Below are positions 5,207-49,715 of a DNA stretch of 52,410 nt, in pieces. The stretch is from Candidatus Dojkabacteria bacterium. GTDB lineage: Bacteria; Patescibacteriota; Dojkabacteria; SC72; JAHDCA01. The stretch covers positions 1-52,410 of the forward strand of contig JALWDW010000008.1 of the NCBI GenBank assembly GCA_027036675.1, read 5' to 3'. Each line of letters begins with the position of its first letter. Within the stretch, counting starts at the first letter, position 1. The position numbers and the translations under genes were made by a program. The notes beneath the pieces are model-generated. The model saw nothing but the letters and a program-made list of their open reading frames with translations. It was not told where the DNA came from and ran no database searches.

Positions 5207-6424
5207 ATGGTGAAATATTTCTTTATTCCCGGTAAAAACAAAGACTTGGCGTTTGCCGAGCTGAAATCTCTGCGAGAGATTTTGAACAACAGCTTTGTCA
5301 TTCGTCGTGATGTGGAATTTTTTGAAGTCGGCTGTGATGATATTGATACGGTTCGAGAGCTTTTTGCGCGCACCGGGGCATTTGTCAAATACGGGGTATT
5401 TTTACCGGACGATGTGCAAATTGCCAAGGTGCCGGCATATAGGTCGGATATCCTGAGCGAGAAAAGGAACCGCCCTGCCAAATCTACCAAGCGCAGGTTC
5501 GGGTTAAGCGCATATACATCATCACTGGATTTCAGCGAACTGAAGAAATTGGCTTATTCCATTAAGCGCGATTTGACACGTGCAGGGTTGAAATACGCAT
5601 ATATCCTCCCCAAGAAGGGGAATGCTCTGAACACGGCGCAGGTCTTGTACAACGACTTGTTGGACTCGGGTTTTGAACTGGATGTGTTTGATGTGAACGA
5701 GACGCAAACTGGCATATCGACAAGGTTTGGCATCACTCTGGGGGTGCAAGATATGAGCGGGTACGTCAAGAGGGATACCGAGAAGCCGTTGATTGATCTG
5801 GAAATGGGTGTCTTGCCACACAAACTGGCCCGAACTATGGTAAATCTGCTGGGGTTGCCGATCGGCAACACAGTATGGGACCCTTTCGCGGGGTCGGGTG
5901 TGTTGGGTATGGAGGCATTGCTGTTAGGGTACAATGTCTTGTTGTCTGATAAAAGCCCGGAAAGCGTCGTGGCGTTGCGGGCCAATCTGGCATGGTTGGC
6001 GGAGGAATACGACCTGGGTTCAACTCGACAAAATGTCTTTCAGTTTGATATGCATGAAAAACGCGGGAAAATTTACTCTCGGTTAACCAAATCCGACATC
6101 GGTGGCGTGGTCTTTGAACCGTATATGGGTCCACCGCAAAAAAATATCATACCCGTCAAGAAAGCCAAAAAATTGGTAAACGAAGTGACTTCATTGTTGC
6201 GTGACACCTTCAAAACGATTGAAAAAATACAGCACCGTCCTTTGAAAGTGGTGGCGGTGGTACCATCCTACAAATCGCAGCATGGCTGGCTGACTCCCAC
6301 GACTCGGGATTTTGTCAGGAAAAAATTGTGGAGAACGCCATCTGCGTTGCGTGGTATGCAATTGTACTCGCAAAGGCCTCGAAGCATTATTCGCAGAAAT
6401 ATACTTGTACTTGAAAGAGTTTGA
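5207..6424 (+). CDS. putative SAM-dependent RNA methyltransferase (UPF0020/Trm11-like)
   Basis: DPFAGSGVLGMEALLLG (SAM motif I) and VFEPYMGPP (motif IV-like). N-terminal ferredoxin/THUMP-like region. Confidence 0.5.
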   Translation: MVKYFFIPGKNKDLAFAELKSLREILNNSFVIRRDVEFFEVGCDDIDTVRELFARTGAFVKYGVFLPDDVQIAKVPAYRSDILSEKRNRPAKSTKRRFGLSAYTSSLDFSELKKLAYSIKRDLTRAGLKYAYILPKKGNALNTAQVLYNDLLDSGFELDVFDVNETQTGISTRFGITLGVQDMSGYVKRDTEKPLIDLEMGVLPHKLARTMVNLLGLPIGNTVWDPFAGSGVLGMEALLLGYNVLLSDKSPESVVALRANLAWLAEEYDLGSTRQNVFQFDMHEKRGKIYSRLTKSDIGGVVFEPYMGPPQKNIIPVKKAKKLVNEVTSLLRDTFKTIEKIQHRPLKVVAVVPSYKSQHGWLTPTTRDFVRKKLWRTPSALRGMQLYSQRPRSIIRRNILVLERV

Positions 6425-6522
6425 TTTCATATGTATAATACGCACGTTTGTCAAGGTATTGGCGAATGATGCAAATCAATGAGTTTGTTTTGCGTGGTAA
6501 TAAATTGTGATTGATATGTTTT

Positions 6523-6831
6523 ATGTCTAAAGTCGCAGCAGCAGGTAGTGTCGCAACGACGATGAATGTGGTCGGTAAGCGGCTTGGAGTTAAAAAATAT
6601 GCCGGGCAATCGGTTATCAATGGAAATATTTTGGTGAAACAGCGCGGGACCGTATTTCATGCCGGTATCGGTACAAAATTATCCAGAGACCACAGCATCT
6701 ATGCGGTGACTGCCGGTGTGGTGCGTTTTAGGCGTATGACTGGCCACAAGCGCAATAAATATTATGTGGACGTGGTCCCCGCCGAAGTTGCCTCGCCAAA
6801 GCAAAGCAAAACATCGAAATCGGCCGCGTGA
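6523..6831 (+). CDS. rpmA: 50S ribosomal protein L27 (divergent N-terminus)
   Basis: GKRLGVKKYAGQSVINGNILVKQRGTVFHAGIGTKLSRDHSIYAVTAGVVRF is the L27 core. ATG at 6523. Confidence 0.85.
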   Translation: MSKVAAAGSVATTMNVVGKRLGVKKYAGQSVINGNILVKQRGTVFHAGIGTKLSRDHSIYAVTAGVVRFRRMTGHKRNKYYVDVVPAEVASPKQSKTSKSAA

Positions 6832-6887
6832 TATGGGCCAACTTGCGTCCAAGTATTCTTTTTCATATCTCCCTGTTATAATCAGGT

Positions 6888-7634
6888 ATGGCAAAACAGC
6901 GTTTCGTACAAATTGAAAACAAAAACGCTTTGTTGGAACTTCTGGAGGACGGCAAACCCATCACCAGGCTGATCATCGCCAACAACGCTTACAAGGACGT
7001 CAAGACAAAAGCCATAGTGGAGCACGCAAGAAAAGCGGGTATCCCGATCGAACGTCGGTCACGTAAATCCATATCGCGAAGATCCAGAGTTTCCAGCAAC
7101 GAGAGTGTGATCGGATTTATGCAAATCGACAACCAATACTCTCTCGAGCAATTGCTCAGTCAGACATACGAAAACGGCGATATCCCTTTTTATATTATCT
7201 TAAACGAAATCAAGTACGCGCAAAACCTCGGCGCTATCTTCAGGACGGCGTTTGCCGGCGGTGTCAATGGCATTATCACCAATAAGCAGACCGGAAATTT
7301 GCTGAGCGATGAAATCATACGTATCTCCATGGGGACCGCTTTGCGAATACCCATAGTGGAGACCCATATATTCAACGCAATCAAAAGACTACGGAAGGAA
7401 GATATCTCAGTGTATGCCATGGATATGGAAGGTAAATCAATTTATAAAGAGAATTTGACCGGTCCGGTGGCGTTTGTTCTCGGGTCCGAAGATACCGGTG
7501 TATCTTCCAAGGTACTGGAAAGAGTGGACGGAGCATTGTCAATACCCATGAGGCGGGGGATCGGGTCGCTGAATGTAAGCATCAGCGGGGCTATAGTGAT
7601 ATACGAAAAATTGCGACAAGAGTTGCAATTGTGA
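6888..7634 (+). CDS. SpoU/TrmH-family RNA 2'-O-methyltransferase (RlmB-like)
   Basis: NLGAIFRTAFAGGVNGII, VLGSEDTGVS and IPMRRGIGSLNVSISGAIVIYE SPOUT motifs. Confidence 0.8.
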   Translation: MAKQRFVQIENKNALLELLEDGKPITRLIIANNAYKDVKTKAIVEHARKAGIPIERRSRKSISRRSRVSSNESVIGFMQIDNQYSLEQLLSQTYENGDIPFYIILNEIKYAQNLGAIFRTAFAGGVNGIITNKQTGNLLSDEIIRISMGTALRIPIVETHIFNAIKRLRKEDISVYAMDMEGKSIYKENLTGPVAFVLGSEDTGVSSKVLERVDGALSIPMRRGIGSLNVSISGAIVIYEKLRQELQL

Positions 7635-7655
7635 TTTGCATCAATCTCCGCCGAT

Positions 7656-8522
7656 TCAATCGTTGAGCATCTTCCTCGTCAAATCTTCAAGTTCTTCATC
7701 CGAATTGAATCGGATGATCATCTGCCCTCCCTTTTGCAGTTGACGGAAACGCACGGTATATCCAAGCTTCTTGGATAGCTTGTCTGCGATCGCCTTTGTC
7801 GAGCGAGTATATGCGATCACCTTCCTTTGCAGATGCTTGCGTTTGCCCATATTGATCTTCTTGACCATCCTTTCGGTGTCTCTGACCGATAACTGTCTTT
7901 TGATTACTATATTGCACGCGGCGATTAACGATGATTCACTTTCTATACCGAGCAACGCACGCCCGTGTCCTTCAGTGATACGGCCGTTGAGTACTGCGGC
8001 TCTGACTTGCGCGGGCAATTGTAGCAATCGGAGCTTATTGGTGATTGTAGATCGTTGCAGTCCCATTTTGCGGGCGATTTCTCTTTGGGTCAGACCAAAC
8101 TCGTTTTGCAGTTGCTCAAAAGCCGAGGCTTCTTCGAGAGGGTTGAGATCCTTGCGTTGAATGTTTTCTATAAGCGCGAGCTCCAACATCTCCTGCTTGG
8201 ATGCTTCTTTGATGACCACGGGGATTGTCTTCAATCCCATCTGCTGAGCGGCTCTGTACCTGCGCTCTCCGGCGATGATATAGTACATGCCCTTTTTGTT
8301 TGGATTAGCCGTGATCACAAGGGGTTGGATTATGCCGTGCTCTTGTATTGATTCGATGATCCCTTGCAAATCCTCCGGTGTAAATTGCATACGAGGCTGG
8401 TATGGGTTTGGCTCGACCAATGAAATGTCAAAAGACGGGTTGTATGCAGAATTCTCGTTTTGCATAGCGCCAGATGAAATCAGAGCAGCCAATCCTTTGC
8501 CGAGTGCTTGTTTTTCCGCCAT
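7656..8522 (-). CDS. parB: chromosome partitioning protein ParB/Spo0J
   Basis: IQPLVI, IIAGERRYRAA and an HTH (LTQREIARKMGLQRSTITN). Confidence 0.9.
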   Translation of the reverse strand: MAEKQALGKGLAALISSGAMQNENSAYNPSFDISLVEPNPYQPRMQFTPEDLQGIIESIQEHGIIQPLVITANPNKKGMYYIIAGERRYRAAQQMGLKTIPVVIKEASKQEMLELALIENIQRKDLNPLEEASAFEQLQNEFGLTQREIARKMGLQRSTITNKLRLLQLPAQVRAAVLNGRITEGHGRALLGIESESSLIAACNIVIKRQLSVRDTERMVKKINMGKRKHLQRKVIAYTRSTKAIADKLSKKLGYTVRFRQLQKGGQMIIRFNSDEELEDLTRKMLND

Positions 8523-8538
8523 AGTTTATTGTATCAGA

Positions 8539-9330
8539 TTATGTAAATCTTGTGATGAACTCCTGCGCCAACTTAGCATACGCGATGGCGCCATGAGACT
8601 TGTCATCGTATTGCAAGATGCTTTTTCCATGCGACGGGGCTTCAGATAAACGGACATTTCGCGGTATTATGGTTTCAAATGTAAGCTTAGGGAAATGCTC
8701 TCTCACCTCCGCCATCACTTGGGCCGAGAGCTTTGTGCGCGCGTCAAACATTGTCAGGATGATACCGCCCAACTCAAGCTTCGGATTTATGTTTTTCACC
8801 AAATTCATGGTGTTGGTAAGTTGCCCAAGGCCCTCCAACGCGTAGTATTCACACTGTATCGGGACGATCACATAGTCGGCAGAGTTCAGAGCGTTGATCG
8901 TAAGCAAACCCAATGAAGGCGGGGAGTCTATCAATACAAAATCAAAGGGTTCATGTAAGTCGTCCAAAGCCTTCCTCAACACGCCCTCCCTTGCCATCAC
9001 GTTGACCATCTCTACTTCAGCGCCAGCCAAGGATATATGAGATGGGACGATGGCCAAATTATCGATTTCTGTGAATGTGAAAACTTGGCTGATTGGTTTG
9101 CCGTTGATCAGGATATCATAAGTATTCAAATATCTGTTTTCCTCGCTTGCCGGATATTTCGACATATTATTCTGTTGAAAAAAACCTATACCCGAGGTGA
9201 GGTTCGCTTGAGGGTCCAGATCGATCAAAAGCACCTTCTTCCCGGCGTTTGCGAGGTATGCGCCAACATTCAATGCCGAAGTTGTCTTACCGACTCCACC
9301 TTTTTGATTGGCAAAAACAAGTGTCGTCAT
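8539..9330 (-). CDS. parA: chromosome partitioning ATPase ParA/Soj
   Basis: Deviant Walker A NQKGGVGKTT, LLIDLDPQ, VLIDSPPS. Adjacent to parB. Confidence 0.9.
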   Translation of the reverse strand: MTTLVFANQKGGVGKTTSALNVGAYLANAGKKVLLIDLDPQANLTSGIGFFQQNNMSKYPASEENRYLNTYDILINGKPISQVFTFTEIDNLAIVPSHISLAGAEVEMVNVMAREGVLRKALDDLHEPFDFVLIDSPPSLGLLTINALNSADYVIVPIQCEYYALEGLGQLTNTMNLVKNINPKLELGGIILTMFDARTKLSAQVMAEVREHFPKLTFETIIPRNVRLSEAPSHGKSILQYDDKSHGAIAYAKLAQEFITRFT

Positions 9331-9334
9331 AGTA

Positions 9335-9949
9335 TCAGTTGAGATTATAATGAGGTCCTGTGATGATCCTCATATTGTTAAACGGGAAATAAACGAAAAT
9401 TACTTCACCTTTGACAGCCTCCAACTCCACCGGTCCGAAAACTCTGGAATCCGTACTGTGAGGGCGATTGTCTCCCATGACGAAAATATGCCCCGCAGGT
9501 ACGGTGAACGGTTGACCCTCTGGTAGAGCCGGCCCCGGCATCGTCCGGACTGTGTCTGCAAGATAATCGCTTTCATCCAATTGCTCATTGTTGATATACA
9601 CATGTCCGTCTATGATCGCGATCTCATCTCCGGCCACTCCGATGACTCGTTTGATGTAATCCTCGGTAGGGGAGTGCTTGAAAATGATGACATCACCTCT
9701 GCGTGGCTCTCTGAGTTTGTAGATGATCTTGTTTGCGATGATATGCTCTTGGTTGCGAAATGTCGGCATCATAGATTGACCGTCAACTTGGTGTGGAGTG
9801 ATCAGCGTCAAGTATAATACGATACTGATGGCAAGAGCAATCACGATTGATTCGATACTTTCGAAAATGACGGATCCTACAGTCCCGAAAACGGCCGAAA
9901 CTCTTTCGAAGCCGGTTTTCTTATTTATATCCACGTCGTACATTCCCAT
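9335..9949 (-). CDS. lepB: signal peptidase I
   Basis: N-terminal TM, GQSMMPTF (catalytic Ser box), GDVIIFK, YIKRVIG, GDNRPHSTDSR. Confidence 0.85.
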   Translation of the reverse strand: MGMYDVDINKKTGFERVSAVFGTVGSVIFESIESIVIALAISIVLYLTLITPHQVDGQSMMPTFRNQEHIIANKIIYKLREPRRGDVIIFKHSPTEDYIKRVIGVAGDEIAIIDGHVYINNEQLDESDYLADTVRTMPGPALPEGQPFTVPAGHIFVMGDNRPHSTDSRVFGPVELEAVKGEVIFVYFPFNNMRIITGPHYNLN

Positions 9950-10040
9950 GAGCAGTTTGTTTCAAAATTCAGATTGACATAAGTATATCACTTCCTCCGG
10001 ATGGTGTAAGTACAATTTGCAGACAAATACAAAACGGGGC

Positions 10041-10760
10041 CTACAAATTGACTGAGACATCCATCTTTTCAAAAGCGTAAGTTACAAACTTGACTGCGAC
10101 GCATGCGATGAATATCGAGCCAATGAAGTCAATAGTGTAATGCGTACGTCCGGCTACCGACAGGAATATCAAATTTAGACTGAGGAGGATAGTCAACGCC
10201 ATCGACCACCATTTACGATGTGTGACTTGTATCAGGAGTAAACCCAATCCCATGACGACGGCCAGGTGTCCCGATGGGAATTCACCATGTATTGATGCGA
10301 AACTGTCCCATACATATTTCTGAAACAAACGGAGAAAAGTATCCAAAGAACCTTGTACAGTGTGTGGGGCAACAGTATGTGATGCTGCGGCGCGCCAATT
10401 TGCTTCTGTCAAGGGAAGCCCGAGAGGAGTAAGCGGTATCATCAAGGCTCTGAGTATGTAGATGACGCTTAATATCCATATTCCTTGGGCCACTGTCACG
10501 ACGCGCGTATCGGCTTTGAGTATCAATCCGGTTAACAGGAATATGGTGACAAGGTCGACGATATTGAAAAGCTTGAGGGCCCATGGGTTGAACGGCGTGA
10601 CAGAATGAAGTAAATCCGCCGATACGGCGAGTGGACCGAAATGGTTCTCTATGAAGTGCGATGCCGCAAGGTTGGCTCGACCACTCAAGAGTAATGCGAA
10701 TATCCCGAGGATCAGCAGTACATAATTTCTTGATGACGTGTTTTTTGCAATAAGTTGCAT
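10041..10760 (-). CDS. PAP2-superfamily (PAP2_C-like) integral membrane protein
   Basis: Polytopic. FPSGHLAVV and GRTHYTIDFIGS resemble PAP2 C2/C3 motifs. Start moved to ATG 10760 because the longer ORF overlaps tRNA-Glu. Confidence 0.5.
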   Translation of the reverse strand: MQLIAKNTSSRNYVLLILGIFALLLSGRANLAASHFIENHFGPLAVSADLLHSVTPFNPWALKLFNIVDLVTIFLLTGLILKADTRVVTVAQGIWILSVIYILRALMIPLTPLGLPLTEANWRAAASHTVAPHTVQGSLDTFLRLFQKYVWDSFASIHGEFPSGHLAVVMGLGLLLIQVTHRKWWSMALTILLSLNLIFLSVAGRTHYTIDFIGSIFIACVAVKFVTYAFEKMDVSVNL

Positions 10761-10808
10761 ATCCGGTTGACTATCTGTGTTTTGAGCAAGGACCGCTCGT
10801 GATGACTT

Positions 10809-10880
10809 TACCGCCACGGGGAATCGAACCCCGATTGCCGGGATGAAAACCCGGTGTCCTGACCGTTAGACGATGGCGGC
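10809..10880 (-). tRNA. tRNA-Glu(UUC)
   Basis: Hand-folded cloverleaf: acceptor GCCGCCA/TGGCGGT, anticodon stem CCGGG/CCCGG with loop TTTTCAT, T arm CGGGG-TTCGATT-CCCCG. 72 nt. Confidence 0.85.
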
Positions 10881-10912
10881 CTGGTACGTCAATACGACAA
10901 GGCGATTCTACA

Positions 10913-11185
10913 TTATTTCTTCCTGTTTGTTAAGAGAGCTTCTTCGCTTTCCAATGAGAGACGTTTGTACCGATTTTTCTTTTTGTCGTGGGTGAATCTG
11001 CGTCGACATTTGCATTGCAATACATCAACTCCCGGTTTGTAATCGTGTACGATAATTTCGGCTCCAGATAAAGGTTTCATACATCCTGGGCATACGCCCT
11101 TGCCGAGCAATACTTCTTGAAACGGCTTCAACACAAATTTCGGTTTACGTATCATTGCATTGTCAATGCACAGTTTAAGCGTCAT
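10913..11185 (-). CDS. small basic Cys4 zinc-ribbon-like protein
   Basis: CPGC...CKC pattern and Lys/Arg-rich tail. Lies between two tRNAs. Start moved to ATG 11185 to clear tRNA-Leu. Confidence 0.35.
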   Translation of the reverse strand: MTLKLCIDNAMIRKPKFVLKPFQEVLLGKGVCPGCMKPLSGAEIIVHDYKPGVDVLQCKCRRRFTHDKKKNRYKRLSLESEEALLTNRKK

Positions 11186-11197
11186 CACGATGCCATT

Positions 11198-11283
11198 TGC
11201 TGAAGAGAGGACTCGAACCTCCACATCCGAAAACGGATACATGGTCCTAAGCCATGCGCGTCTGCCAGTTCCGCCACTTCAGC
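11198..11283 (-). tRNA. tRNA-Leu(UAG), long variable arm
   Basis: Acceptor GCTGAAG/CTTCAGC, anticodon loop CTTAGGA, long variable arm, T arm GGAGG-TTCGAGT-CCTCT. 86 nt. Confidence 0.85.
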
Positions 11284-11295
11284 AAAAGTACTGGG

Positions 11296-11304
11296 AGTAT
11301 ATCA
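11296..11304 (-). promoter_or_regulatory. extended -10 (TGATATACT) upstream of tRNA-Leu
   Basis: The minus strand reads TGATATACT, ending about 12 nt before the tRNA 5' end. Same TGN-TATAAT style as other promoters in the window. Confidence 0.35.
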
Positions 11305-11331
11305 CAACCCGGACTTCGAACACACGTTCTG

Positions 11332-11869
11332 CATTCTAATTCCGATCGCAACAAGTCGGGGTTGAACCCCGGGCTTAAACCCCGGACTTGACAAAGGAAC
11401 CTTATCACCATGGGAATAATCACCAAGAAAATCTTGCGATTAATATTATTTTAATCGAAATTTAATGGCCAACTTACGTTGTCGTATAGGCGTTTACGAG
11501 TGCCCGTCGCTCTGGAGCGCGCATCCCGGGGACTCCGCGTATTCCTTGCAGACATGGCCTTTATCGATATTTTATAGCGACAGCGGACGATATAGCGTAC
11601 CTGAGTATAGGTGCAGAGCATGTTGACGTGTCATCGGTCGTATATTGAGAAAATGTCACTAAGAAAGCTCTGTCGCGACGCACAGTGTGCCGTGAGAACT
11701 GTAATTACGCGACATTTGTATATATCGTATACGCTCTATTTTGCATATTTGGCCGAGCCGAAATCTTGCCAACTATACCTACTACAACAGCGTTGCCACA
11801 CAATCAGTGGGTTCGAAGACCGGGTCGCAACCCCGACTTTGAATACCCGTTGCAATCGGAAATAGAATG
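11332..11869. repeat. element A: ~538-bp ORF-free structured intergenic element (candidate large ncRNA or MITE-like)
   Basis: 21-nt terminal inverted complement (19/21) plus an inner 11-nt perfect complement. Gap-free homology to 22289-22820. Confidence 0.7.
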
Positions 11870-11919
11870 TAGGAATTTGCGGTTCTGCACAACATTTGCG
11901 CAGGTTAAATCAATTTCAC

Positions 11920-11949
11920 TTGAAGAGGCTTATATTTGCTATTTATAAT
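11920..11949 (+). promoter_or_regulatory. sigma70-like promoter TTGAAG-18-TATAAT
   Basis: TTGAAG at 11920-11925 and TATAAT at 11944-11949, 31 nt before ATG 11981. Confidence 0.35.
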
Positions 11950-11980
11950 CCACTGTTCATCACATGACAATAGCTTGGCA

Positions 11981-12706
11981 ATGAAACGGAACGATTTAAA
12001 CAGGTTTACGGACCTGCACGATATACAAATGCAAATCATCAACGACCTGGCGAGGACAGGTCCGGCCACGTTTGGCGTATTGAGGCCGCATGACGTCGCG
12101 ACCGATCATTTCACATACCACATCAAAACAGTCATAGAAAAAGGGTTGGTAGCGGTGGATCGCCGTAACGGTAAGAAATACTACGTTCTCACGGAGCTTG
12201 GTAAACGGTTTGCGGATTCATTTGAGTTTTCAAAGAAGAAATTACTTGATCAAGGGATGATCATCACGGTATTTTGCGTATCGAAGGAGGTGAAAGGAGA
12301 AACAAAGTACCTGATGTCAAAACGGTTGTACGCGCCTTGGAAGGGGCATCTCGGATTCCCGGCCGGCAAAGTTCATTTTGGTGAAACAACTTTCGAAACG
12401 GCCAGACGGGAGCTTCTGGAGGAAACTGGCCTGGAAGCTCAACTGGAACTGCGGCAGGTCATTCATTATATTGATTTTGATGAGACCGGCCAGCTATTGC
12501 GTGATATCTATAAGTTTGTTTACGAAGGTAAAAACCCGCGCGGTGAGTTTCACCGGGTGGCCGACAATGGGCGTACCGAAAATTACTGGCTTACCAGATC
12601 GGAGATCGAGAGGCATAAGGTATATCCCGGATTTTGGGATGATTTTTTCATGTGGGGTAATGACGACTTCTATATCGAAAAAGTCAGAACGGTCGAGGGG
12701 TATTGA
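11981..12706 (+). CDS. winged-helix DNA-binding domain fused to a Nudix hydrolase
   Basis: N-terminal wHTH-like region (IINDLARTGPATFGVL...KGLVAV). C-terminal Nudix box GFPAGKVHFGETTFETARRELLEETGL. Confidence 0.7.
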   Translation: MKRNDLNRFTDLHDIQMQIINDLARTGPATFGVLRPHDVATDHFTYHIKTVIEKGLVAVDRRNGKKYYVLTELGKRFADSFEFSKKKLLDQGMIITVFCVSKEVKGETKYLMSKRLYAPWKGHLGFPAGKVHFGETTFETARRELLEETGLEAQLELRQVIHYIDFDETGQLLRDIYKFVYEGKNPRGEFHRVADNGRTENYWLTRSEIERHKVYPGFWDDFFMWGNDDFYIEKVRTVEGY

Positions 12707-12780
12707 TATTGCAAGTATTGGTGGACCAGGTGCCACCATACGTTGTATACTTCAAATGGCGCAGTTAGATTACAATACAT

Positions 12781-13470
12781 GTGCATATGAGGCTCGCATC
12801 TGACAAATGGGGACAATTGACGGATAACTTCGACATCACGGGGTCGGTCAAGCATCAAGACTCCGCAGATAATGTGGAAATAGCATGGCCTGTGATCATC
12901 GGTAATCTCCCCGACAGTGGAGAGGTAATCGATTTTGGTTGCGGAACCGGCGGTTTTTGTCATTATCTGCATGAGCTTGGCTTTTCGGTTGCTGGTATAG
13001 ACAATTCGCCGGGTATGCTGGACGTGGCAAGAAAACTTTTTCCGCAAATACGATTTTATCGATCCTGGGATAAGAGTGGATGTGGCGACGGGACCTTGGA
13101 TGCCGTAACCTGCGTGATGTCTCTTCAATTTGTACAAGACGTGGAAGATGTATTATCTCGTATAAGTAAAATATTGAAAAACGGTGGTAGACTTATCGTA
13201 GCTACATTTAACCCTGATTTTATATCGGAAGGCTTGAAGCAAGGGAACTTCTTTTCGCAAGAGAATGAAGGTTTATATTCCTTTGGAGATTTGAAAATAC
13301 CTACATACGGCAGGAGCGAAAAAGAGTATATAAGGATGGCTCGTGAACGTGGTTTGACGCATGTACGCACGTACTATCCGCCTTTCACTCAAGAATTCAT
13401 AGAAAAGTACTCACCGAAGTATCCTACAAACGTGCCGGAATTTATGATCATGGTGTTTGATAAAGCTTGA
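12781..13470 (+). CDS. class I SAM-dependent methyltransferase
   Basis: VIDFGCGTGGF motif I, acidic motif II (AGIDNSPGML), LKNGGRLIV. Confidence 0.75.
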   Translation: MHMRLASDKWGQLTDNFDITGSVKHQDSADNVEIAWPVIIGNLPDSGEVIDFGCGTGGFCHYLHELGFSVAGIDNSPGMLDVARKLFPQIRFYRSWDKSGCGDGTLDAVTCVMSLQFVQDVEDVLSRISKILKNGGRLIVATFNPDFISEGLKQGNFFSQENEGLYSFGDLKIPTYGRSEKEYIRMARERGLTHVRTYYPPFTQEFIEKYSPKYPTNVPEFMIMVFDKA

Positions 13471-13747
13471 GAATTTGAATTGATAGCCCTTGCTCTGGTT
13501 TCATAACCCTTTACAATTTTCGTATTGCATGGAAGCTCTGGTCGGCATTCCGGTCGCCAAAAGCATCCGTTAGACAATAATCGACTATAGGGTGTGCACA
13601 GCCCATACGGTTCCTTGGCATTTAAGGAAATGTTTATTTTCCGGTTTTCCTACCAAAATAATCCCGACGAATGGTTCGTGGCTTCTCTTGTTGAGCGACC
13701 TTCATTGCATGTGGCACGCATCGTTACTCACGGCTGGTTTAGCGTGC

Positions 13748-17443: not shown

Positions 17444-18544
17444 TTATCTGGCCTCTTCCAAACGGTTTACCTGTGCGAGTTGTTCCACATCCTCGGATTT
17501 TGCTTTGTTCAATGTATAGTAAGTGCCTCTACCGGTCCCGTGAGCCTCGATATACCCTTCTTTCATGAGTTGTTTGAGGTCGCGAAACGCGGTCATAAAC
17601 GAAACTTTTGTCATTTTCGCATACTCTTGTCGGGTAATTTTGCCGAAACTTTCCAGGTAATCAAGTATCTGCAATTGCCGCGTATTGAATATGACGTGTA
17701 ATTTGCCTTGCTTGTGAACTTTCTTCATGAAAAGCGCCTTGTATGTGCTTGTCACAGTCAGCAGTTCAAGCGTGAAGGCGTACAAAAAGGCTTCTATAAA
17801 CATGGTGATATCGTTGTTGCGTTTGGCTATTTTAAACGCGTGTTTGAGATCGCTGTCTATGTGATTGAAGATGCGGACAACGGAGATCATATTGTGTGGA
17901 CTGTAATTCCACTCCTTAAGCTGTATCGTCATGAAAAGGGCCGATGTGATTTGATTGAGAGATTGGAGTGGCGCCTTGTCGATAAACTCGTACAACAGCA
18001 AAGCCAAGCGTATCAGGCGATGCTCCGGTGTCTTCGGGCGATTGAGGTAGGTGATCAGTGTTGAAAAATATGAATGCAGGTCATAATGATGCTGTGTGTC
18101 GCGCAATACGTACCAATTGTCAAACGCTTCGTTTGGCAACGCATCCGGTGAACGTAATTTCCCTATATCCCAGTCTTCCAGGAGCCCTCGCGCGAGCAAC
18201 TTGTTTAGGTGCAATAGGAGGTCCACCGATATCGGCATGGAAGTCGTACTGTCGTATTCTCGGATATAATCCAAGGCGTTGCGGTAATTGTTGTAGATAC
18301 GGTGCTCTTTTTTGGCCGTGGATATTAGGCGTCCTTTCTTGATGAGCTTTGCGCGATAAAGTCCGATATTTTCCCCGAGGAGCTCTGAGAGTTGCTCGAT
18401 CTCCTCTATATGCAGTTGTTCCAGGAGGTCGGCGACGTATTTTTGCGGTAGGGGCATGATCTTGATGCGGGCAATGCCGAGTTCTGCCTTGACGATATAG
18501 TCAACCATCAAATGTGTCAATGTGTAATTGGGTGATGTGTACAT
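17444..18544 (-). CDS. Fic/DOC-like protein with degenerate active-site motif and C-terminal wHTH
   Basis: Fic-like helical core. YEFIDKAPLQSLNQITSAL occupies the position of HPFxDGNGRxxR. C-terminal ITRQEYAKMTKVSFMTAFRDLKQLMKEGYIEAHGTGRGTYYTL. Confidence 0.5.
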   Translation of the reverse strand: MYTSPNYTLTHLMVDYIVKAELGIARIKIMPLPQKYVADLLEQLHIEEIEQLSELLGENIGLYRAKLIKKGRLISTAKKEHRIYNNYRNALDYIREYDSTTSMPISVDLLLHLNKLLARGLLEDWDIGKLRSPDALPNEAFDNWYVLRDTQHHYDLHSYFSTLITYLNRPKTPEHRLIRLALLLYEFIDKAPLQSLNQITSALFMTIQLKEWNYSPHNMISVVRIFNHIDSDLKHAFKIAKRNNDITMFIEAFLYAFTLELLTVTSTYKALFMKKVHKQGKLHVIFNTRQLQILDYLESFGKITRQEYAKMTKVSFMTAFRDLKQLMKEGYIEAHGTGRGTYYTLNKAKSEDVEQLAQVNRLEEAR

Positions 18545-18633
18545 ATTTGTTGATTTCCGACGATGTCCAAATCACTCCATAACCGACCTGTGTCGCCGAG
18601 CATGGAGTGTATGTGACGTAAAACAAAAACTTT

Positions 18634-18706
18634 AGCTGGAAATGAGACTCGAACTCATGACCTACTCTTTACGAAAGAGTTGCTCTACCAACTGAGCTAT
18701 TCCAGC
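18634..18706 (-). tRNA. tRNA-Thr(CGU)
   Basis: GCTGGAATAGCTCAGTTGGTAGAGCA..., anticodon loop TTCGTAA, T arm ATGAG-TTCGAGT-CTCAT. 73 nt. Confidence 0.85.
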
Positions 18707-19654
18707 AAATCATATTTGCCGTCTTTCCTGTCATGCGCGCTTATCGTAACATATTTCTCTGGGGAAGGGAAGAGGGCGGGGGGGGCGACCCCGGGCTTTG
18801 GTAGCATCCTTCGGGCGATAGGATGCGTACTACAGGTTGGTGGCGGTCTAATAGTTTGTTGGGCTGATGGTGTACTTACGGGCTTTGTACGAAGCCTGTA
18901 GCTTTTATTTCACAATTATTGCATGACTCGGCGAAGCCGAGTCATGCAGCCGCGAGTGCACCACTTCGGTAGAAAACGCCCAGAAGTCGGGGGTGAAGTG
19001 CTGCCGAAGAAAATTCGGCTGGCCAAAATATGGCGAAGTCATGGGACGTAGCTGCGTAGTTGAACACGATATCCCATACCTACAGGATAATACGAGACTT
19101 CGTTGATCGTTGCTGTCATGGGATCAGTACGTTTAGTGACAGGATATTTAAGGTAATCCGAGAAAGACAATGACAGACCCGGTTTACATCGTATCTTGCG
19201 TGTGTCCGTATTACCTCATACACAGCCATATCATGATATGGCGATAGTATCCGTGTCATGGGATTTACATGTCCCATCAAAGATTTTATGACGAAATGAC
19301 GTGTGATACCGCCCTTTTTCTTGGACAACAGGTGACATGACGATGATTACGAGTGAATCATGAATTTTGCATAACTAGGGGTGTTGCCATGGTGTTTCTT
19401 CTCTAAGGGTGGGACCCATGGTAGGACCGGAATCCCGGCGTCCATGTACGGCGCGTGTCCAATATACCGATGTACCGGAGTCTGCGCATATACGGGTGAG
19501 TAATGTACCATCAGGACCTTGGCTTGTCGCTGACGCGAATACTCTCGATCGTTTCACGGGGATTTGCGATAGACAATCCTGATCGTAGAGTCGGAGGCTT
19601 CACTGGGTGGGTAAGCGCGACTCCTGGCTGATGACATTAATCACAGGGAATGCC

Positions 19655-20215
19655 TCATTTGGTGATAAGCCGTAAAACTGTTTGTCTGTAAACGTCTGGA
19701 TCAATATGCGTAGTATTGACCGACCGGGCGGTCGCGAGAAAATCATGGGCGGTGATCAGCATAGTGGCCAAAGATACGGGGTCGATATCCACGAGCTCAC
19801 CAGCCTCAATCCCATCTTGGATGATATTCGCAACAAAACGGATATAATTGTTCAGATACTCAGTGGCTACCAGAGCGCGTATACTCTGGTGCGAATCATA
19901 AATCATGGCATATATGGCGGAGAACTCTTGTATCCCATCTGTCGGTTCGACGATGAGCTTCTCCAATTGTGCCAATGGCGATACAATATTGGCGATCAAT
20001 ACCTTGCTTCTGTCCAGCCGGTCCGCGGCGACATATCTGACAACCGAAATCATCAAGTCGTTTTTACTTGCAAAATAGGTATAAAAAGACCCTTTGCCGA
20101 TCCCAAGGACAGAACATAAACTCCGAACGGACAGGCGTTCAAGACCGTTTTGCATTATTAATTCGGTCGCTGTGTTTAGGAGCCCTTCCCTTGTAATCCT
20201 CTTTTTTTTGATCAT
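19655..20215 (-). CDS. TetR/AcrR-family transcriptional regulator
   Basis: N-terminal HTH (TREGLLNTATELIMQNGLERLSVRSLCSVLGIGKGSFYTYFASKNDL). ATG 20215 preferred over GTG 20224. Confidence 0.85.
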   Translation of the reverse strand: MIKKKRITREGLLNTATELIMQNGLERLSVRSLCSVLGIGKGSFYTYFASKNDLMISVVRYVAADRLDRSKVLIANIVSPLAQLEKLIVEPTDGIQEFSAIYAMIYDSHQSIRALVATEYLNNYIRFVANIIQDGIEAGELVDIDPVSLATMLITAHDFLATARSVNTTHIDPDVYRQTVLRLITK

Positions 20216-20239
20216 TGTGTACACGAATTATATTCACGG

Positions 20240-20255
20240 TTGACCGTGCGGTCAA
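20240..20255. promoter_or_regulatory. perfect palindrome TTGACCG-TG-CGGTCAA, candidate TetR operator
   Basis: 16-bp inverted repeat 25 nt upstream of the TetR ATG, in the divergent intergenic region. Confidence 0.45.
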
Positions 20256-20429
20256 GTATTTGAAGTATCTACCTGATAGCAGTCCAAATTTATATTAAAA
20301 TTTAAAATTCGGTTGTTTGTGATTTTAGAGTGTAGGCCGTGTTAGGTATGGGGTGATCGATATTGAATCCACAAGGATAATGAGACCTGACCGCATGGGC
20401 AGACAACGAATGCGGATAGAATATGTTTC

Positions 20430-20458
20430 TTGAGGAATCGCATATATCGTGCTATAAA
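20430..20458 (+). promoter_or_regulatory. sigma70-like promoter TTGAGG-17-TATAAA
   Basis: TTGAGG at 20430-20435 and TATAAA at 20453-20458, 8 nt before ATG 20467. Confidence 0.35.
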
Positions 20459-22288: not shown

Positions 22289-22820
22289 CGCGATCGCTAC
22301 AAGTCGGGGATGAACCCCGGGCTTAAACCCCAGACTTGACATGGAAACCTTATCACCATGGGAATAACCGGCAAGAAAATCTTGCGGTTAATATTATTTT
22401 AATCGGAATTTAATGACCAACTTACTGTGTCGTATAAGCGCTTGTGAGTACCCGTCGCTCTGGAGCGCACATCCTGGGATCTCTGCGTATTCCTTGCAGG
22501 CACGGTTTTTATCGATACTTTGTAGATATGGTAGATGGAACGATGTACCTAAACATACGTACGGAGCGGGTTGCTGTGTTGTCTGCCGTATCTTGAGAAA
22601 ATGTCCCCGAAAAAGCGCCTTTTCAGCGTCTAATGTGCAGTGAGAGCAGTGACCACACGGTATTTGTATATGTCGTATAGGTTCTGTTTTGCACATTAAA
22701 ACTGGGTGACACTTTGTTGACCAGCTGCATTACAACAGCGTTTTCGCCCAATCAGTGGGTATGAAGATCGGGTCCCAACCCCGACGTTGCATGCTCCTTG
22801 CAATCGGAAATAGGATTTAC
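22289..22820. repeat. element B: second copy of the ~530-bp ORF-free element
   Basis: Aligns to 11341-11872 at a constant offset of 10,948 with no indels. Begins right after the MFS stop codon. Confidence 0.7.
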
Positions 22821-22892
22821 GATGTTTTTGTGTAATATAACTTTTATGATATAGTTCGTGTCATCTAAGCTCATATTCACAAAATCGGAGAA

Positions 22893-29648: not shown

Positions 29649-30279
29649 CCGACAGGAGGTCGGGTCAAACTATTGAGTATTGGAAATGGTATGTACATGC
29701 CCCCAGGTTTTGGGATTTACTTCTTCGTCCTCGAATTGACCCTACGGTCGGGGAACTGCGCCTGAGGTATAAGATCTTATCTACTGTCGTAGTGGTCATC
29801 GATCTGTGTGGGTGCTAAATCTTCATTGGAAGATAGCCTATAGAAGAACGTTCTATCGAAGGAAACCTGAGGGGTAAAGCCATCTAGTGACCGAATGATC
29901 AGCTATAGGCCGTGTGTGAAAAACTAGTGACCAGGCGTTCAGTACGAGATTGGCAACTCCTGGAAGTCATACCCCGATAGTCAGTACGGTAACGACCGAG
30001 TGGTTAGTCCATGGTTGATGGTTTCCGGGGCTTATGCATGCAGCTGGTGTGCTGACGACCGGGTGGTCGTCTACGGTACTGTGCATACAAAACCTGCCGA
30101 CCGGGCGGTCAGGCGTAGTGACTGCTGGTGAGTACGAATCTCTGCGAATACGCTGTTTGCGAGCGACCGTGCGTTCACGGTATTCGCTACTTAAAATGGG
30201 ATCCCGATAGTATGGTCGATACAGCGATTCGACATGCTCGTAGTAGTATAAAGCTAAAGTGGCCTAGGTGAGACAACCG
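29649..30279. other. 631-bp ORF-free hairpin-dense spacer between convergent htpX and helD
   Basis: No ORF of 60 aa or more. At least seven GACC-N4-GGTC-like stem-loops and an 8-bp stem (30144-30151 with 30180-30187). Confidence 0.6.
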
Positions 30280-32484
30280 CTATTTTCCGACGATAAACAG
30301 CCGGTGCAGAGCTCTTGTCATGGCGACGTACAATAAGCGTTGCGAGTACTCATCCCGCCCGTAGGTCGGTTCGTCTACGTCTATGATGAACACACTGTCA
30401 AATTCAAGCCCCTTGGCTTTGGCAACCGGTAATACGAGAACCCCGGTCGAGTGGTTGTCGTCCGATTCGGTATGCAATTTTCTGGTAAAAAGGTTTTTGT
30501 GTTTTACCAAACGTTGATGGACCTTGCGAAAATGGGTGAGATCTCTGGTAATGATGCCGACCGTGGACGCGCCTTTGTCAAATTGTTCGTTCACTTTGCG
30601 GATTATATCTTTGATTGTTTGTTCATCAGCGTCGTCGAATGTTGCACCGATTGATATGGTCTCGACCGGATCGCCATGCCTGAGTACAGCTTCCGGCGGG
30701 TTCAAGCCTTTTGGCATGAAATCGGTGAGGAGGGTATTCGTATAGTCAATGATCTCCACCGTAGTGCGGTAAGACTTATTCAACTGTGTGTAAATAGTAT
30801 CACCTCCCGTCTCTTTGCGCAGTATCTCGACCACATCCTGCCAATCCTTGATATAAAACGGGGGGATGATCGCTTGCGCCAAGTCACCAGCCAGCATCAA
30901 GTTGTTGCGTCCGGCCAGTTTGGCTATGGTCAGCAATTGAGCGATACTGTAGTCTTGCGCCTCGTCTACCATGATCACATCCTTTACATACTCTCGGTAT
31001 CCGTACAAGGACATGGACAACTCAAGCAATAAAGGTATATCTTCCTGCTTATGGAACTGCACATTACCCGTCATATTGAAATATGATTTGGTAAATGCTT
31101 CTATATTCCTCATCGTGGCGGTAGGAATCCCTTCCGATTCAAACGCTTCGTGATCTTTTAGCAACGCCATATACATATTGCGCAACCTCAATCGCTTCTT
31201 GATCAACTTTAGTACCTTTGCTTCCTTATCTTTGATATTACGCAACTGTCCCATATAGTCTCCGGCGACACCCATGTTTTGCTCCTTTTGATTGAAAGCG
31301 TATCTGACCGCCAATTCCAGGCTCTCGTAAATATCGATATCTGAATGATTGTTTCTGAGCTCCTCGTAACGGGATGTGACTACCCATTTGACTGACTCGG
31401 ACAGTTCGTCAAGTATTTGTTCGACGTATCTGGCGAACGCTTTGCGAATACCGCGATAAAAGGCGTACGATCCTTTGATTGACTTAATCTCCAAATTGTC
31501 TGGCGTATCGCTGAGTACGTGCCTGTCGTCCCATTTGAGTACTTTCTTGGCAAGAGACATATATACGTCCGTTTGTGTGCCAAAGATTCCCAGGTTTGGC
31601 AAGAGTTCGGAAATATAATCTATAAACATTTTGTTTGGAGCCAGAACCAATGCTTTGTTCATCGATATTTTGGACTCCTGCGAATAAGCGAGGTATGCCA
31701 GGCGGTGGAGAAGGATCGTCGTCTTGCCAGAACCGGCGACCCCTTGAAGGATAATCGGTCTGTCGATCTGTGCGCGTATAATTTCGTTTTGCGTTTTTTG
31801 AATTGTGGAAACTATATCCACCAGTTTTTTCCCGCTACGACCTGAGAGCTCATGCAAAAGAAACTCATCGGCGCTTGAATTCCCACTTTTGATGTCATAG
31901 ATGTTTTGGAAACGTCCCAACACGATCTCAAACTGTCTCTTCTGCGTCAAATCTCCTGTGATCTTGCCGGCCGGGCTTGTGAAATCGACATTTTCAGTTG
32001 GACCAGAGTGTTGATAGTACAGGTTGGCGATAGGTGCACGCCAATCCGTGATCAGAGGCACCCCAGTGCTAGGATCAATCATAGCAAATTTGCCGATATA
32101 TACTTTGACAGGTTTTGAGGTTTTGTGATTTTTGAATACGATCTTGCCAAAGTAGGGTTTTTTAATGATCGTCAAATCATGATTCAGATCCTTGACGTAC
32201 TTTCGCATGCGTTTCAACAATTTATTGTAGGTTTTGACGGCATCTTCTCTGTCGTCTCCTGTCTCGTGTTCCATCGCGAAGATAGCATCCTCCATCTCCA
32301 CGAGCAAGCTCGCTCTGCGTGCATCTATATCCTTGATCTGTCCATGGATCAGCTCTATGGCACGCAATAAGTGAGGGTATTCTTCCTCTTCCACACTGTC
32401 TTTGGGTACGACATCGTCGTTTGAAACTATCTGCGGCAATTGTTCATATACCGGCAGGATGTACTCTTGATAATCGATGGGCAT
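30280..32484 (-). CDS. helD: HelD-type UvrD/Rep-family helicase (RNA polymerase recycling ATPase)
   Basis: KPYFGKIVF...VYIGKFAMI...ITDWRAPIANLYY N-terminal signature, then IVSTIQKTQNEIIR and Walker A ILQGVAGSGKTT. Length and layout match HelD. Confidence 0.85.
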   Translation of the reverse strand: MPIDYQEYILPVYEQLPQIVSNDDVVPKDSVEEEEYPHLLRAIELIHGQIKDIDARRASLLVEMEDAIFAMEHETGDDREDAVKTYNKLLKRMRKYVKDLNHDLTIIKKPYFGKIVFKNHKTSKPVKVYIGKFAMIDPSTGVPLITDWRAPIANLYYQHSGPTENVDFTSPAGKITGDLTQKRQFEIVLGRFQNIYDIKSGNSSADEFLLHELSGRSGKKLVDIVSTIQKTQNEIIRAQIDRPIILQGVAGSGKTTILLHRLAYLAYSQESKISMNKALVLAPNKMFIDYISELLPNLGIFGTQTDVYMSLAKKVLKWDDRHVLSDTPDNLEIKSIKGSYAFYRGIRKAFARYVEQILDELSESVKWVVTSRYEELRNNHSDIDIYESLELAVRYAFNQKEQNMGVAGDYMGQLRNIKDKEAKVLKLIKKRLRLRNMYMALLKDHEAFESEGIPTATMRNIEAFTKSYFNMTGNVQFHKQEDIPLLLELSMSLYGYREYVKDVIMVDEAQDYSIAQLLTIAKLAGRNNLMLAGDLAQAIIPPFYIKDWQDVVEILRKETGGDTIYTQLNKSYRTTVEIIDYTNTLLTDFMPKGLNPPEAVLRHGDPVETISIGATFDDADEQTIKDIIRKVNEQFDKGASTVGIITRDLTHFRKVHQRLVKHKNLFTRKLHTESDDNHSTGVLVLPVAKAKGLEFDSVFIIDVDEPTYGRDEYSQRLLYVAMTRALHRLFIVGK

Positions 32485-35084: not shown

Positions 35085-35125
35085 AAGGTTATCGAATGGT
35101 AAATTTACTTATCAAATTACTGGAT

Positions 35126-35134
35126 ATTATACCA
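35126..35134 (-). promoter_or_regulatory. extended -10 TGGTATAAT (minus strand)
   Basis: The minus strand reads TGGTATAAT, 41 nt upstream of the ATG at 35084. Confidence 0.4.
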
Positions 35135-35787
35135 CAAAACAGCCTATAGCGCTACCTAGCAATCGAAGCCGGGGTTGGACCCCAGGCTTGAACCCCGGGC
35201 TTGATGTGAAGGTATTGTTATCGTGAGAATGAAGGGTAGAAAAACAGGATTTTCAGGGGCTTGGCTATAGAAATTGTACAATCGGTTTATATTGTCACAC
35301 CAATCTTTTCAACGCCCTACCACACCGAAGTGAGTGATTTCCCATGACTACAAGGTTTATCCCAGGTTTCAATAGTTTTCCGCTCCCGTAGCGGGTAAGC
35401 CTATGTTTTTTTACATAGTCAAAGTAAGACATAATGACATTGTCCAATGACAACGGGTGTTTTACTTGGGTATGGAGTATTGCGATAACCGCTTTATTTA
35501 TATCTGAGGCTTCGTAAGTCCTACGAGAGGAATTTCGGTAATACTATTTTTTATCTAACAGTCCGGGGGATGCTTTTCTATATAGATGAAAACTTAATGA
35601 AAACTTCACATCCGATGTGAAGTATCAGCAGTGGCACCGCATCCGCAATCGTGGTAGCGACTGTGGGTGCGGTCTTAATGAAAACTTAGTCCTCGTTCCC
35701 CGCCGGGTCGTGAGTTGCCAGTGCTTGAATGTTGCCGGCGGGGCTCGCGATTGCTACTGCAGATGAAAATTTAATGAAAATTTCACG

Positions 35788-35932
35788 TCGGCTGGGGCGC
35801 CCATTATCCGAGGACCTTGACCTGTGGCGTGAGTAGAGCTTTTGTGGGTCCGCGGACTGGTTCCGTTGAGGAAGGTTTCCTTCGCGGATGAAGATTTAAA
35901 GCCTCCGGCGTAATTCCCCGACCGTAAGGTCG
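35788..35932 (+). repeat. 145-bp direct repeat, copy 1
   Basis: Identical to 36178-36322 except at 3 positions. Confidence 0.9.
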
Positions 35933-36177
35933 ATTGGGGATGAAGTAGCTCCCAAATCGTCAGGACGATGTGCTGAAGGTTGCTCAGCGGATTGCAGTAT
36001 GTCGATTTACCTGTGTGTAATGTATGTATGTTGTACTCGAAGCTACGGCATGATATGCGTTGAGAATAAATTTACATTCGGCAGTATTTTGGACGTTGAC
36101 GATATTCGAAAGATTTGGGACAAACGAAGTTTGTAAAGTCGATACCCCGACCGGCAGGTCGTGGGAGAGGCTTCATC

Positions 36178-36322
36178 TCGGCTGGGGCGCCCATTATCCG
36201 AGGACCTTGACCTGTGGCGTGAGTAGAGCTTTTGTGGGTCCGCGGACTGGTTCCGTTGAGGAAGGTTTCCTTCGCGGATGAAGATTTAACGCCTCCGGCG
36301 TAATCCCACGACCGTAAGGTCG
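36178..36322 (+). repeat. 145-bp direct repeat, copy 2
   Basis: Same as copy 1, 390 bp downstream. Differences are A/C, T/C and C/A near the 3' end. Confidence 0.9.
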
Positions 36323-36619
36323 GGGGACTGTAGTTGCGACCGCAGGTTGAAGCACGTCCTTCAATAATAGGCTCTGTCATTGGGATAAACCAATACAGGT
36401 AAGACAGTGTATTGCCATCAACTCCCGTCCATCCGGTATCGGTTGGGCGACTCCTCAAAGCCCACTGTCATTGTACAGAAGGTGTATTTGCCTACGTCCA
36501 GCCTTTTTGAGCCATCACCGGAAATCACGAATTCCGGGCCATGCAGCCTGTGGCCACAGTGCTTTGTCTCAAAGGGTGGGTTCCCATCCCGGGGTCGAGG
36601 CCAGGCTTCGCATTCCTTA

Positions 36620-36628
36620 TGATATAAT
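36620..36628 (+). promoter_or_regulatory. extended -10 TGATATAAT immediately upstream of proS
   Basis: TATAAT ends 9 nt before ATG 36638, which implies a leaderless or near-leaderless mRNA. Confidence 0.45.
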
Positions 36629-36637
36629 TTCTCCATT

Positions 36638-48860: not shown

Positions 48861-49643
48861 CTACCCTCCGCGCACGTTTTGCTCGTAGGAAGCCAATTCC
48901 ACCATAAAATGAGACACCGCGTCCGGCCATGGCCCGTTACCCTCAACGCAATCCGGACAGTAGGAAGGAACGATCTCGTACGGGGTGAGATCCGTCCCGT
49001 ACCCGAGTGCAAGCCCCTTGGTGACGGTGGCAATCCCATCACTCCACCCGTCAAAATAACTCCATCGCACGGAGCGATCTTTGTTACCCGCCCAACCCCA
49101 CGCATTGTACGAGTACCCGTGTTCCGGAGAAGTCGGCACGTATTGTCCAAACGCCGACTCCACACCTGAAATGGCGACGACCAACCTCCAATCCAGACCG
49201 TATTTGTCCGCCTCACGTACAAAAATATGAGCGTATGGGTACATTGGTGAGTTGTAGTCTTTCAAAAACAACTTCGTAGCCTCGACCCTGGTATCCCCAC
49301 TGACTATCGATGCGGTTGCGGTCGGTGTCTTCCGACTGTCCAGAGAACCGGAACTGTCATCCGGTACATAAAAGGCGCCGAGCAAATCGGTATCGTTTTG
49401 CATATCATTGTTTGAGATCTCTGGTTTGTATCGGCTATGATAAAATGCGCGAATTCTGCTGTGAGTGAACCTTTGCAACGGTGCGAAGGTTGTCCCGAAA
49501 AGCACCGCTGCGAACATTGTAAACATTAAAAGCTGTGGCGCTTTTTTCATACGAAACTTGGAATCGCTATGATGTTTCGGACCCTGTTTATGAGCTGTGG
49601 AAGCCTTGTGAAGTATCATGACTGGCGGTTTTGGATGATACAA
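48861..49643 (-). CDS. secreted lytic-transglycosylase-like protein (paralog of 34440-35084)
   Basis: N-terminal TM. YGLDWRLVVAISGVESAFG, AWGWAG, SYCPDC. Confidence 0.45.
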   Translation of the reverse strand: MYHPKPPVMILHKASTAHKQGPKHHSDSKFRMKKAPQLLMFTMFAAVLFGTTFAPLQRFTHSRIRAFYHSRYKPEISNNDMQNDTDLLGAFYVPDDSSGSLDSRKTPTATASIVSGDTRVEATKLFLKDYNSPMYPYAHIFVREADKYGLDWRLVVAISGVESAFGQYVPTSPEHGYSYNAWGWAGNKDRSVRWSYFDGWSDGIATVTKGLALGYGTDLTPYEIVPSYCPDCVEGNGPWPDAVSHFMVELASYEQNVRGG

Positions 49644-49715
49644 AATTTATTTGTATAGAGTTCAGAAGCAATTTCATATTATAATGATATATTCATTGTA
49701 TAAGAAACCCTGATA

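Follow-up and report, generated by a model that had tools for sequence, protein, structure and literature searches.

Does the ORF-free segment that adjoins tRNA-Leu and tRNA-Glu in the 52,410-nt stretch of DNA analysed here (the window) specify a large structured RNA, or is it a piece of mobile DNA? The initial annotation had put forward both readings for this segment, element A, which it placed at 11332-11869 (538 bp) and described as closed by a 21-nt terminal inverted complement. Its second reading, that of a non-autonomous element closed by terminal inverted repeats, finds support in an empty site in relatives that are ~97% identical to the window and in a perfect 8-bp duplication. Rather than a large structured RNA, A is probably a lineage-restricted, MITE-like non-autonomous DNA transposon.

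The window is cellular DNA of an uncultured bacterium of the Patescibacteria (CPR): it encodes IleRS, ProRS, L19, L21, L27, FtsW, ParAB and a signal peptidase. The closest ProRS are those of a Patescibacteria MAG (63%) and of Candidatus Roizmanbacteria (57%), and no exact match is on record for the methyltransferase and PAP2 proteins of the window. The ENA contigs of the same strain are interrupted within its limits, L021 ending at window position 1 and a break, where L021 and L023 overlap, falling at 10765-10801, beside tRNA-Glu. The window thus seems to have been joined from shorter assemblies or to come from a separate one. Genomes of Patescibacteria are small and generally considered poor in mobile DNA; a description of MITEs in this group was not found in the literature searched.

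Empty sites and limits of element A

Loci related to that of A were reached via the protein of the neighbouring NUDIX gene (11981-12706), which has one close relative, 96% identical, present on three contigs: L002 (NCBI GCA_027024505.1), L003 (ENA ERZ23491057) and L004 (Logan SRR13622960). These contigs, ~97% identical to the window over both flanks, carry the tRNA-Leu/NUDIX locus without element A. In L002, positions 6303-8636 correspond to window 9000-11333 and positions 8629-9257 to window 11882-12510. The eight bases L002 8629-8636 therefore align on both flanks of A, and L003 and L004 agree. Read directly, the empty site of the relatives is ACACAC GTTCTGCA CAACAT, with a single GTTCTGCA. 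Where the relatives have ACACAC GTTCTGCA CAACATTT, the window has ACACAC GTTCTGCA, then 548 bp, then GTTCTGCA CAACATTT. The perfect 8-bp repeat that flanks A is the signature of transposition with target cuts staggered by 8 bp. The alleles compared, all from the two ~97%-identical lineages, fit an insertion in the lineage of the window as well as a precise loss in its relatives; in either case the duplication of GTTCTGCA marks transposition.

The filled allele is also present in an independent ENA contig, L023 (sample SAMN10217879), where it is contiguous; this contig, free of Ns, shows 2 mismatches over 16.5 kb. Because A is assembled unbroken in this short-read contig, near-identical sister or donor copies of A are probably absent.

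The comparison with the empty sites defines A as 548 bp of inserted DNA and moves the limits proposed previously (Table 1): the left repeat begins with two bases of the target-site duplication, and the element continues for 12 more bases past the right repeat. The indel limits fall within 0-12 nt of the ends of the inverted repeats, and within 9 and 7 nt of the limits of the homology between A and its paralog B.

Table 1. Coordinates, in the window, of element A, its surroundings and its two relatives
Feature	Positions	Strand	Remarks
tRNA-Glu	10809-10880	-	near tRNA-Leu and A
tRNA-Leu(UAG)	11197-11284	-	A inserted 50 nt upstream of the tRNA 5' end
Flank resembling A's own right arm	11305-11325		includes the unit AAGTCCGGGTTG on the minus strand
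Target-site duplication, left copy	11326-11333		GTTCTGCA; alignment of L002/L003/L004 and direct reading
Left terminal inverted repeat (initial limits)	11332-11352		complementary at 19/21 positions to 11849-11869
Inserted element A	11334-11881		missing from L002/L003/L004; contiguous in L023
Left arm, extended imperfect foldback	11343-11402		RNAalifold; 95% identical between A and B
Interior of A	11403-11788		no constrained ORF; no excess or conserved secondary structure
Right arm, extended foldback	11789-11858		RNAalifold; inner-arm complementarity
Right terminal inverted repeat	11849-11869		followed by 12 element bases, TAGGAATTTGCG, partly repeating the terminal AATTCC motif
Target-site duplication, right copy	11882-11889		GTTCTGCA; alignment of L002/L003/L004 and direct reading
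Paralog B	22291-22822		532-nt core, flanked by MFS and glutamine amidotransferase genes
Element C	35164-36610		~1.45 kb, ORF-free, upstream of proS; distant longer relative of A and B

The inverted ends themselves were correctly described: CATTCTAATTCCGATCGCAAC and GTTGCAATCGGAAATAGAATG form the 21-nt terminal inverted complement, and just inside, AAGTCGGGGTT (11353-11363) is complementary to AACCCCGACTT (11829-11839) at 11/11 positions. The inverted-repeat score of A is 15, a value reached by none of 300 dinucleotide-preserving shuffles (mean 8.6, maximum 13). The terminal repeat can be extended to 24 nt at 88% (11329-11352 with 11849-11872), and the arms continue inward as an imperfect foldback of ~60 nt with 43 predicted pairs, drawn from RNAalifold helices 1-5 (columns 12-71 with 458-527). 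The inner arms (11353-11383 and 11809-11839) are 77% complementary over 31 nt. A 12-nt unit, AAGYCCGGGGTT, is present as three copies in the left arm and as one in the right; allowing at most 2 mismatches, this unit has 23 matches across the window, versus 11.5 ± 2.8 expected by chance. The left arm also includes a quasi-palindromic motif of 39 nt (11352-11390).

As had been noted, A adjoins tRNA-Leu and tRNA-Glu, both on the minus strand. It sits in the spacer between the divergent promoters of tRNA-Leu and of the NUDIX gene. The promoter-like site of NUDIX (11920-11949) and the proximal upstream region of tRNA-Leu are intact, so that the insertion of A would be tolerated. The flank that precedes the left copy of the duplication resembles the right arm of A, 11310-11325 being 88% complementary over 16 nt to 11807-11822. 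Compared with the empty-site contigs, this flank carries 4 substitutions clustered in 6 nt (GGACTT versus AGGCTC), and these substitutions mirror the variation of the 12-nt unit between A and C.

Two other observations concern this locus. An ORF of 109 aa lies on the minus strand between tRNA-Glu and tRNA-Leu (10913-11242), with an overlap of 46 nt with tRNA-Leu; it has CxxC...CxC motifs and no Pfam match, and corresponds to a gene call in the relative's contig L004. On the other side of A, ~1 kb of the window (12511-13507) is also missing from L002-L004: it comprises, besides the entire SAM-methyltransferase gene (12781-13470), the C-terminal third of NUDIX. No direct repeat is visible at this junction. 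The NUDIX protein has 241 aa in the window and 176 aa in the relatives; distant homologs being as long as the former (230-280 aa), the version of the relatives looks like the product of a deletion.

Relatives of A inside and outside the window

A paralog of A, B, had been reported at 22289-22820. It does exist, with limits shifted by two bases (Table 1). A and B align without gap over 532 nt with 124 differences (76.7% identity). Conservation peaks at the ends (95% and 82-85%) and is lowest inside (45-75%); the left ~200 nt are 75-95% identical and the remainder 45-75%. The two cores are equal in length despite the 124 substitutions, and three internal segments differ in sequence, not in length. 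The ends of B were read directly and no target duplication could be recognised.

B is found in both strain lineages, with 98.5% identity in L009/L010/L011, and is thus older than their split. Its divergence between strains is 1.3-1.5%, versus 5.8% for third codon positions over the L002/L009 alignments and 2.2% for third positions of the adjacent MFS gene. Given this last value, the low divergence of B may reflect a locally young segment. Strain differences are also visible around B. An indel of 7 nt (ACTGTTG in L009) occurs at window 22825, just beyond the right edge of the B core. Directly upstream of the MFS gene, L009 1-4050 and window 17444-20454 differ in structure: L009 encodes a protein of 1303 aa and an ORF of 95 aa, and the window carries a Fic/HTH gene, tRNA-Thr, an ORF-poor tract and a TetR gene.

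The third member, C, is longer and distant. An nhmmer search with a profile of A and B hits ~80 nt at its left end (35163-35243, model positions 13-98, E=1e-6), and blastn finds 87% identity over 39 nt. C also has inverted arms (35164-35196 and 36578-36610), 73% complementary over 33 nt. Its six frames contain no Pfam remnant. C lies in an ORF-free tract of 1.55 kb (35085-36637), and its A-like left end is the left edge of this tract. It contains two internal repeats of 151-169 nt (35782-35949 and 36172-36337) that are 93-97% identical, as well as repeated GATGAAAAYTTAATGAAAAYTT motifs. An inverted partial copy of this internal repeat is present in another ORF-free gap (29649-30280): 29695-29778 matches 35891-35971 at 72% over 85 nt, which suggests a second small repeat family. 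The folding of this gap is no better than that of shuffles (z about -1).

Within the 52 kb, the family thus numbers two full copies (77% identity) plus a longer, distant relative. Many near-identical copies, the pattern that the initial annotation had associated with a pure MITE, were not found: the copies are diverged, and A was assembled straight through. The same nhmmer profile detected no further member of the family in the 278 kb of DNA searched. The motif GGGGNTGNACCCCNGGCTTNAACCCC, common to A, B and C, had no exact occurrence in 185,579 species genomes, 241 million metagenome records and 2.9 million viral contigs; the internal block CCTTATCACCATGGGAATAA had no match in viral contigs, and plasmids and phages yielded no blastn match to A. 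Loci anchored on ProRS in the two closest genomes and in four metagenome contigs contained no A-, B- or C-like DNA. A crude stop-to-stop scan of these loci revealed no ORF-free gap of at least 400 nt beside proS, but is weak evidence, since it overlooked A and B in the window as well. As far as visible from these searches, the family appears restricted to a narrow lineage of Patescibacteria. Neither a transposase nor an integrase was found among the domains of the sizeable ORFs in the window.

Coding capacity, RNA structure and other explanations for A

The initial annotation stated that A and B share no ORF. This is inexact, as ORFs start at a homologous ATG and in the same frame in both copies (A, 11465-11626, 53 aa; B, 22413-22643, 76 aa), but the absence of a coding signal holds. 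Over the 60-codon stretch that is open in A and B the differences are distributed 17/10/14 by codon position, with 5 synonymous versus 25 non-synonymous codons; by these measures the shared frame is not coding-like. A has stops in all six frames and no codon periodicity, and its differences from B are distributed 32/45/47 by position modulo 3. Its six-frame translation had no homolog at E<=10 among 5.8 billion proteins. No gene caller has thus made a related spurious ORF that would lead to other copies.

We consider it quite improbable that A is the gene of a large structured non-coding RNA, a neighbour of tRNAs like ROOL or GOLLD, with its ends as closing helix and with mobility as a possible addition. 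The precedent of ROOL/GOLLD had been offered for the context only, and no covariance model of these RNAs matches A. More generally, Rfam 15 at the gathering score detects nothing but tRNAs in the whole window. At permissive thresholds no family emerges either: the best match to A at E<=10 is a meaningless 11-bit lncRNA match, and B and C have no match at E<=1. The entire element does fold more stably than its shuffles (z = -2.45 and -3.78 for the plus and minus strands), but the interior without the arms folds like random sequence, with z of 0.02 and 0.01 for A and of -1.16 and -1.37 for B, so that all the excess folding energy of A resides in its terminal arms. In the closing helix 41 of the 43 pairs are invariant between A and B. 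Among the mismatches of the arms, some are G-U when read on the plus strand and others, elsewhere, on the minus strand; G-U/A-C favour neither strand, as predicted by a repeat that exists at the DNA level. The consensus fold of A and B has z of about -2.1 and -2.5 versus column shuffles. For these two sequences the structure conservation index (0.58/0.56) does not differ from that of column shuffles (0.55/0.54). Likewise, for the diverged pair A and B, the RNAalifold structures contain 8 (plus) and 11 (minus) compensatory pairs, against 9.6 ± 2.8 and 8.9 ± 2.5 after column shuffling. Helices of at least 5 bp that A and B both retain and that include one or more compensatory pairs amount to 20 and 13, where shuffles give 27 and 26. 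A tool count of 8 compensatory pairs, versus 4 for its shuffles, seemed favourable but was discarded as circular, the structure being derived from the same two sequences. A promoter-like site is present on the minus strand of A (11472-11445), within a conserved block, but A and B have no promoter-like or terminator-like site in common. The equal core length of A and B at 23% divergence and the conserved internal blocks of 15-22 nt would also suit a structured RNA. So would the divergence of B between strains, which is lower than that of third codon positions over L002/L009 but in line with the third positions of the adjacent MFS gene, as in a segment that may be locally young. Finally A is dispensable, since it is missing from the ~97% relatives.

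Could A instead be ancestral, immobile intergenic DNA that the relatives have lost by replication slippage between chance 8-bp repeats? Deletions did occur at this place, as the same relatives are also devoid of ~1 kb just downstream, a loss that truncates NUDIX, but this neighbouring deletion has no such repeat at its ends. Moreover, slippage requires that an 8-bp direct repeat present by chance (about 1.5e-5 per position pair) happened to enclose the foldback exactly at the limits of the homology with the paralog, and the unrelated locations of B and C demonstrate that this sequence has been mobile. Slippage is thus very unlikely. The proximity of tRNA genes and the short direct repeat at both junctions could also evoke a remnant, or a cargo-less form, of a site-specific integrative element using a tyrosine or serine recombinase, with GTTCTGCA as att core. 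But A did not enter the 3' end of tRNA-Leu, being inserted upstream of the 5' end; neither B nor C lies at a tRNA gene or is flanked by GTTCTGCA, and no recombinase was found in the window. Long terminal inverted repeats are not among the features of site-specific integrative elements. We regard this origin as extremely unlikely.

Movement of A and comparison with known elements

We come back to A as a MITE-like transposon. The A family displays a presence/absence polymorphism, an 8-bp duplication, inverted ends, a paralog (B) and a longer member (C) with the same ends. A itself has the traits by which MITEs are recognised: it is short and devoid of coding capacity, and it has terminal inverted repeats, a target-site duplication and an empty site. 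We propose that a transposase encoded elsewhere, acting in trans, would paste A into the tRNA-Leu/NUDIX spacer. This enzyme would bind the two inverted ends, the units AAGYCCGGGGTT of the arms being candidate binding sites, and would cut the target with a stagger of 8 bp; gap repair would then copy GTTCTGCA onto both sides of A. The enzyme is presumably of the DDE type and encoded outside the window.

Some observations fit this reading less well. In addition to the lack of a transposase in the window, no autonomous partner with the ends of A was found. There are two full copies only, 23% apart, with one distant relative. Such a low copy number, with near-identical sister copies probably absent, is atypical for an actively amplifying MITE, but compatible with cut-and-paste movement: the latter, or a precise loss in the relatives, would explain the perfect duplication and the strain polymorphism of A although a near-identical donor is unlikely. 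B has no recognisable duplication, and the right inverted repeat of A is not flush with its duplication because of the 12 extra bases. Finally, the cores of A and B are equal in length, and conservation at the left, over ~200 nt, reaches deeper inside than a simple end for transposase binding would need.

The equal core lengths and this conserved left module, together with the low divergence of B, the arm-like flank and the low copy number, are the reasons why we keep a small probability for a mobile family that is also functional, through its left module of ~200 nt and its fixed length. The function could be that of an outward promoter now feeding tRNA-Leu, or of an element RNA needed in cis for movement. 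If so, selection would keep B in a genome-reduced lineage of Patescibacteria, and the unusually large ORF-free tracts C, D and E would be related, domesticated mobile non-coding DNA.

How does A, as a MITE-like transposon, compare with known bacterial elements? For MITEs the comparison draws on general knowledge and was made by description rather than by sequence. Like the Correia elements of Neisseria, RUP of Streptococcus pneumoniae and Nezha of cyanobacteria, A is short and non-coding, with foldback inverted repeats; it shares with these elements a target-site duplication, an intergenic location near promoters and presence or absence between close strains. It differs from typical MITEs in its length, 548 bp being at the large end of the range, and in its very few and strongly diverged copies; no parent insertion sequence was identified for it. 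Correia and RUP elements duplicate TA, whereas A duplicates 8 bp. Among insertion sequences, the families IS256, ISL3, IS6, IS66, IS1595 and IS1 duplicate 8 bp (ISfinder definitions). An 8-bp duplication combined with inverted ends in the range of 15-40 bp is what a deletion derivative of such an element would show, but A has neither a transposase gene nor a remnant of one, and the likeness was judged on the definitions of these families.

A resembles ROOL and GOLLD in being ORF-free, several hundred nucleotides long and located beside tRNA genes; unlike them it is bounded by a target-site duplication and has no covariance-model match, conserved structure or covariation. With the REPINs and PATEs derived from IS200-IS605 it has in common a non-coding, hairpin-forming nature, its 39-nt motif being a REP-like palindrome. 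But REPINs and PATEs are far shorter and are moved by Y1 (HUH) transposases without target duplication, and they have subterminal hairpins instead of inverted terminal repeats. The 8-bp duplication and the true inverted ends of A do not fit an element of this kind.

The candidate for a new large RNA is thus replaced by a documented polymorphism of a mobile element. As non-coding transposons that are long-lived and low in copy number, the A family could be used to tell strains apart in the source population, and it would offer a handle for finding the partner transposase.

The window contains further tracts poor in ORFs. The tract 18707-19655 (0.95 kb), beside tRNA-Thr, has several long perfect hairpins (e.g. 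18920-18948) and one copy of the 12-nt unit (18787-18798). It gave no Rfam hit at the gathering score, and its folding z, estimated on 20 shuffles only, is -3.2 for the plus and -2.1 for the minus strand. The stretches 49643-50720 (~1.1 kb) and 51118-51678 (0.56 kb) contain no ORF of at least 120 aa. Together with A-E, they bring the ORF-free share of the window above 10%.
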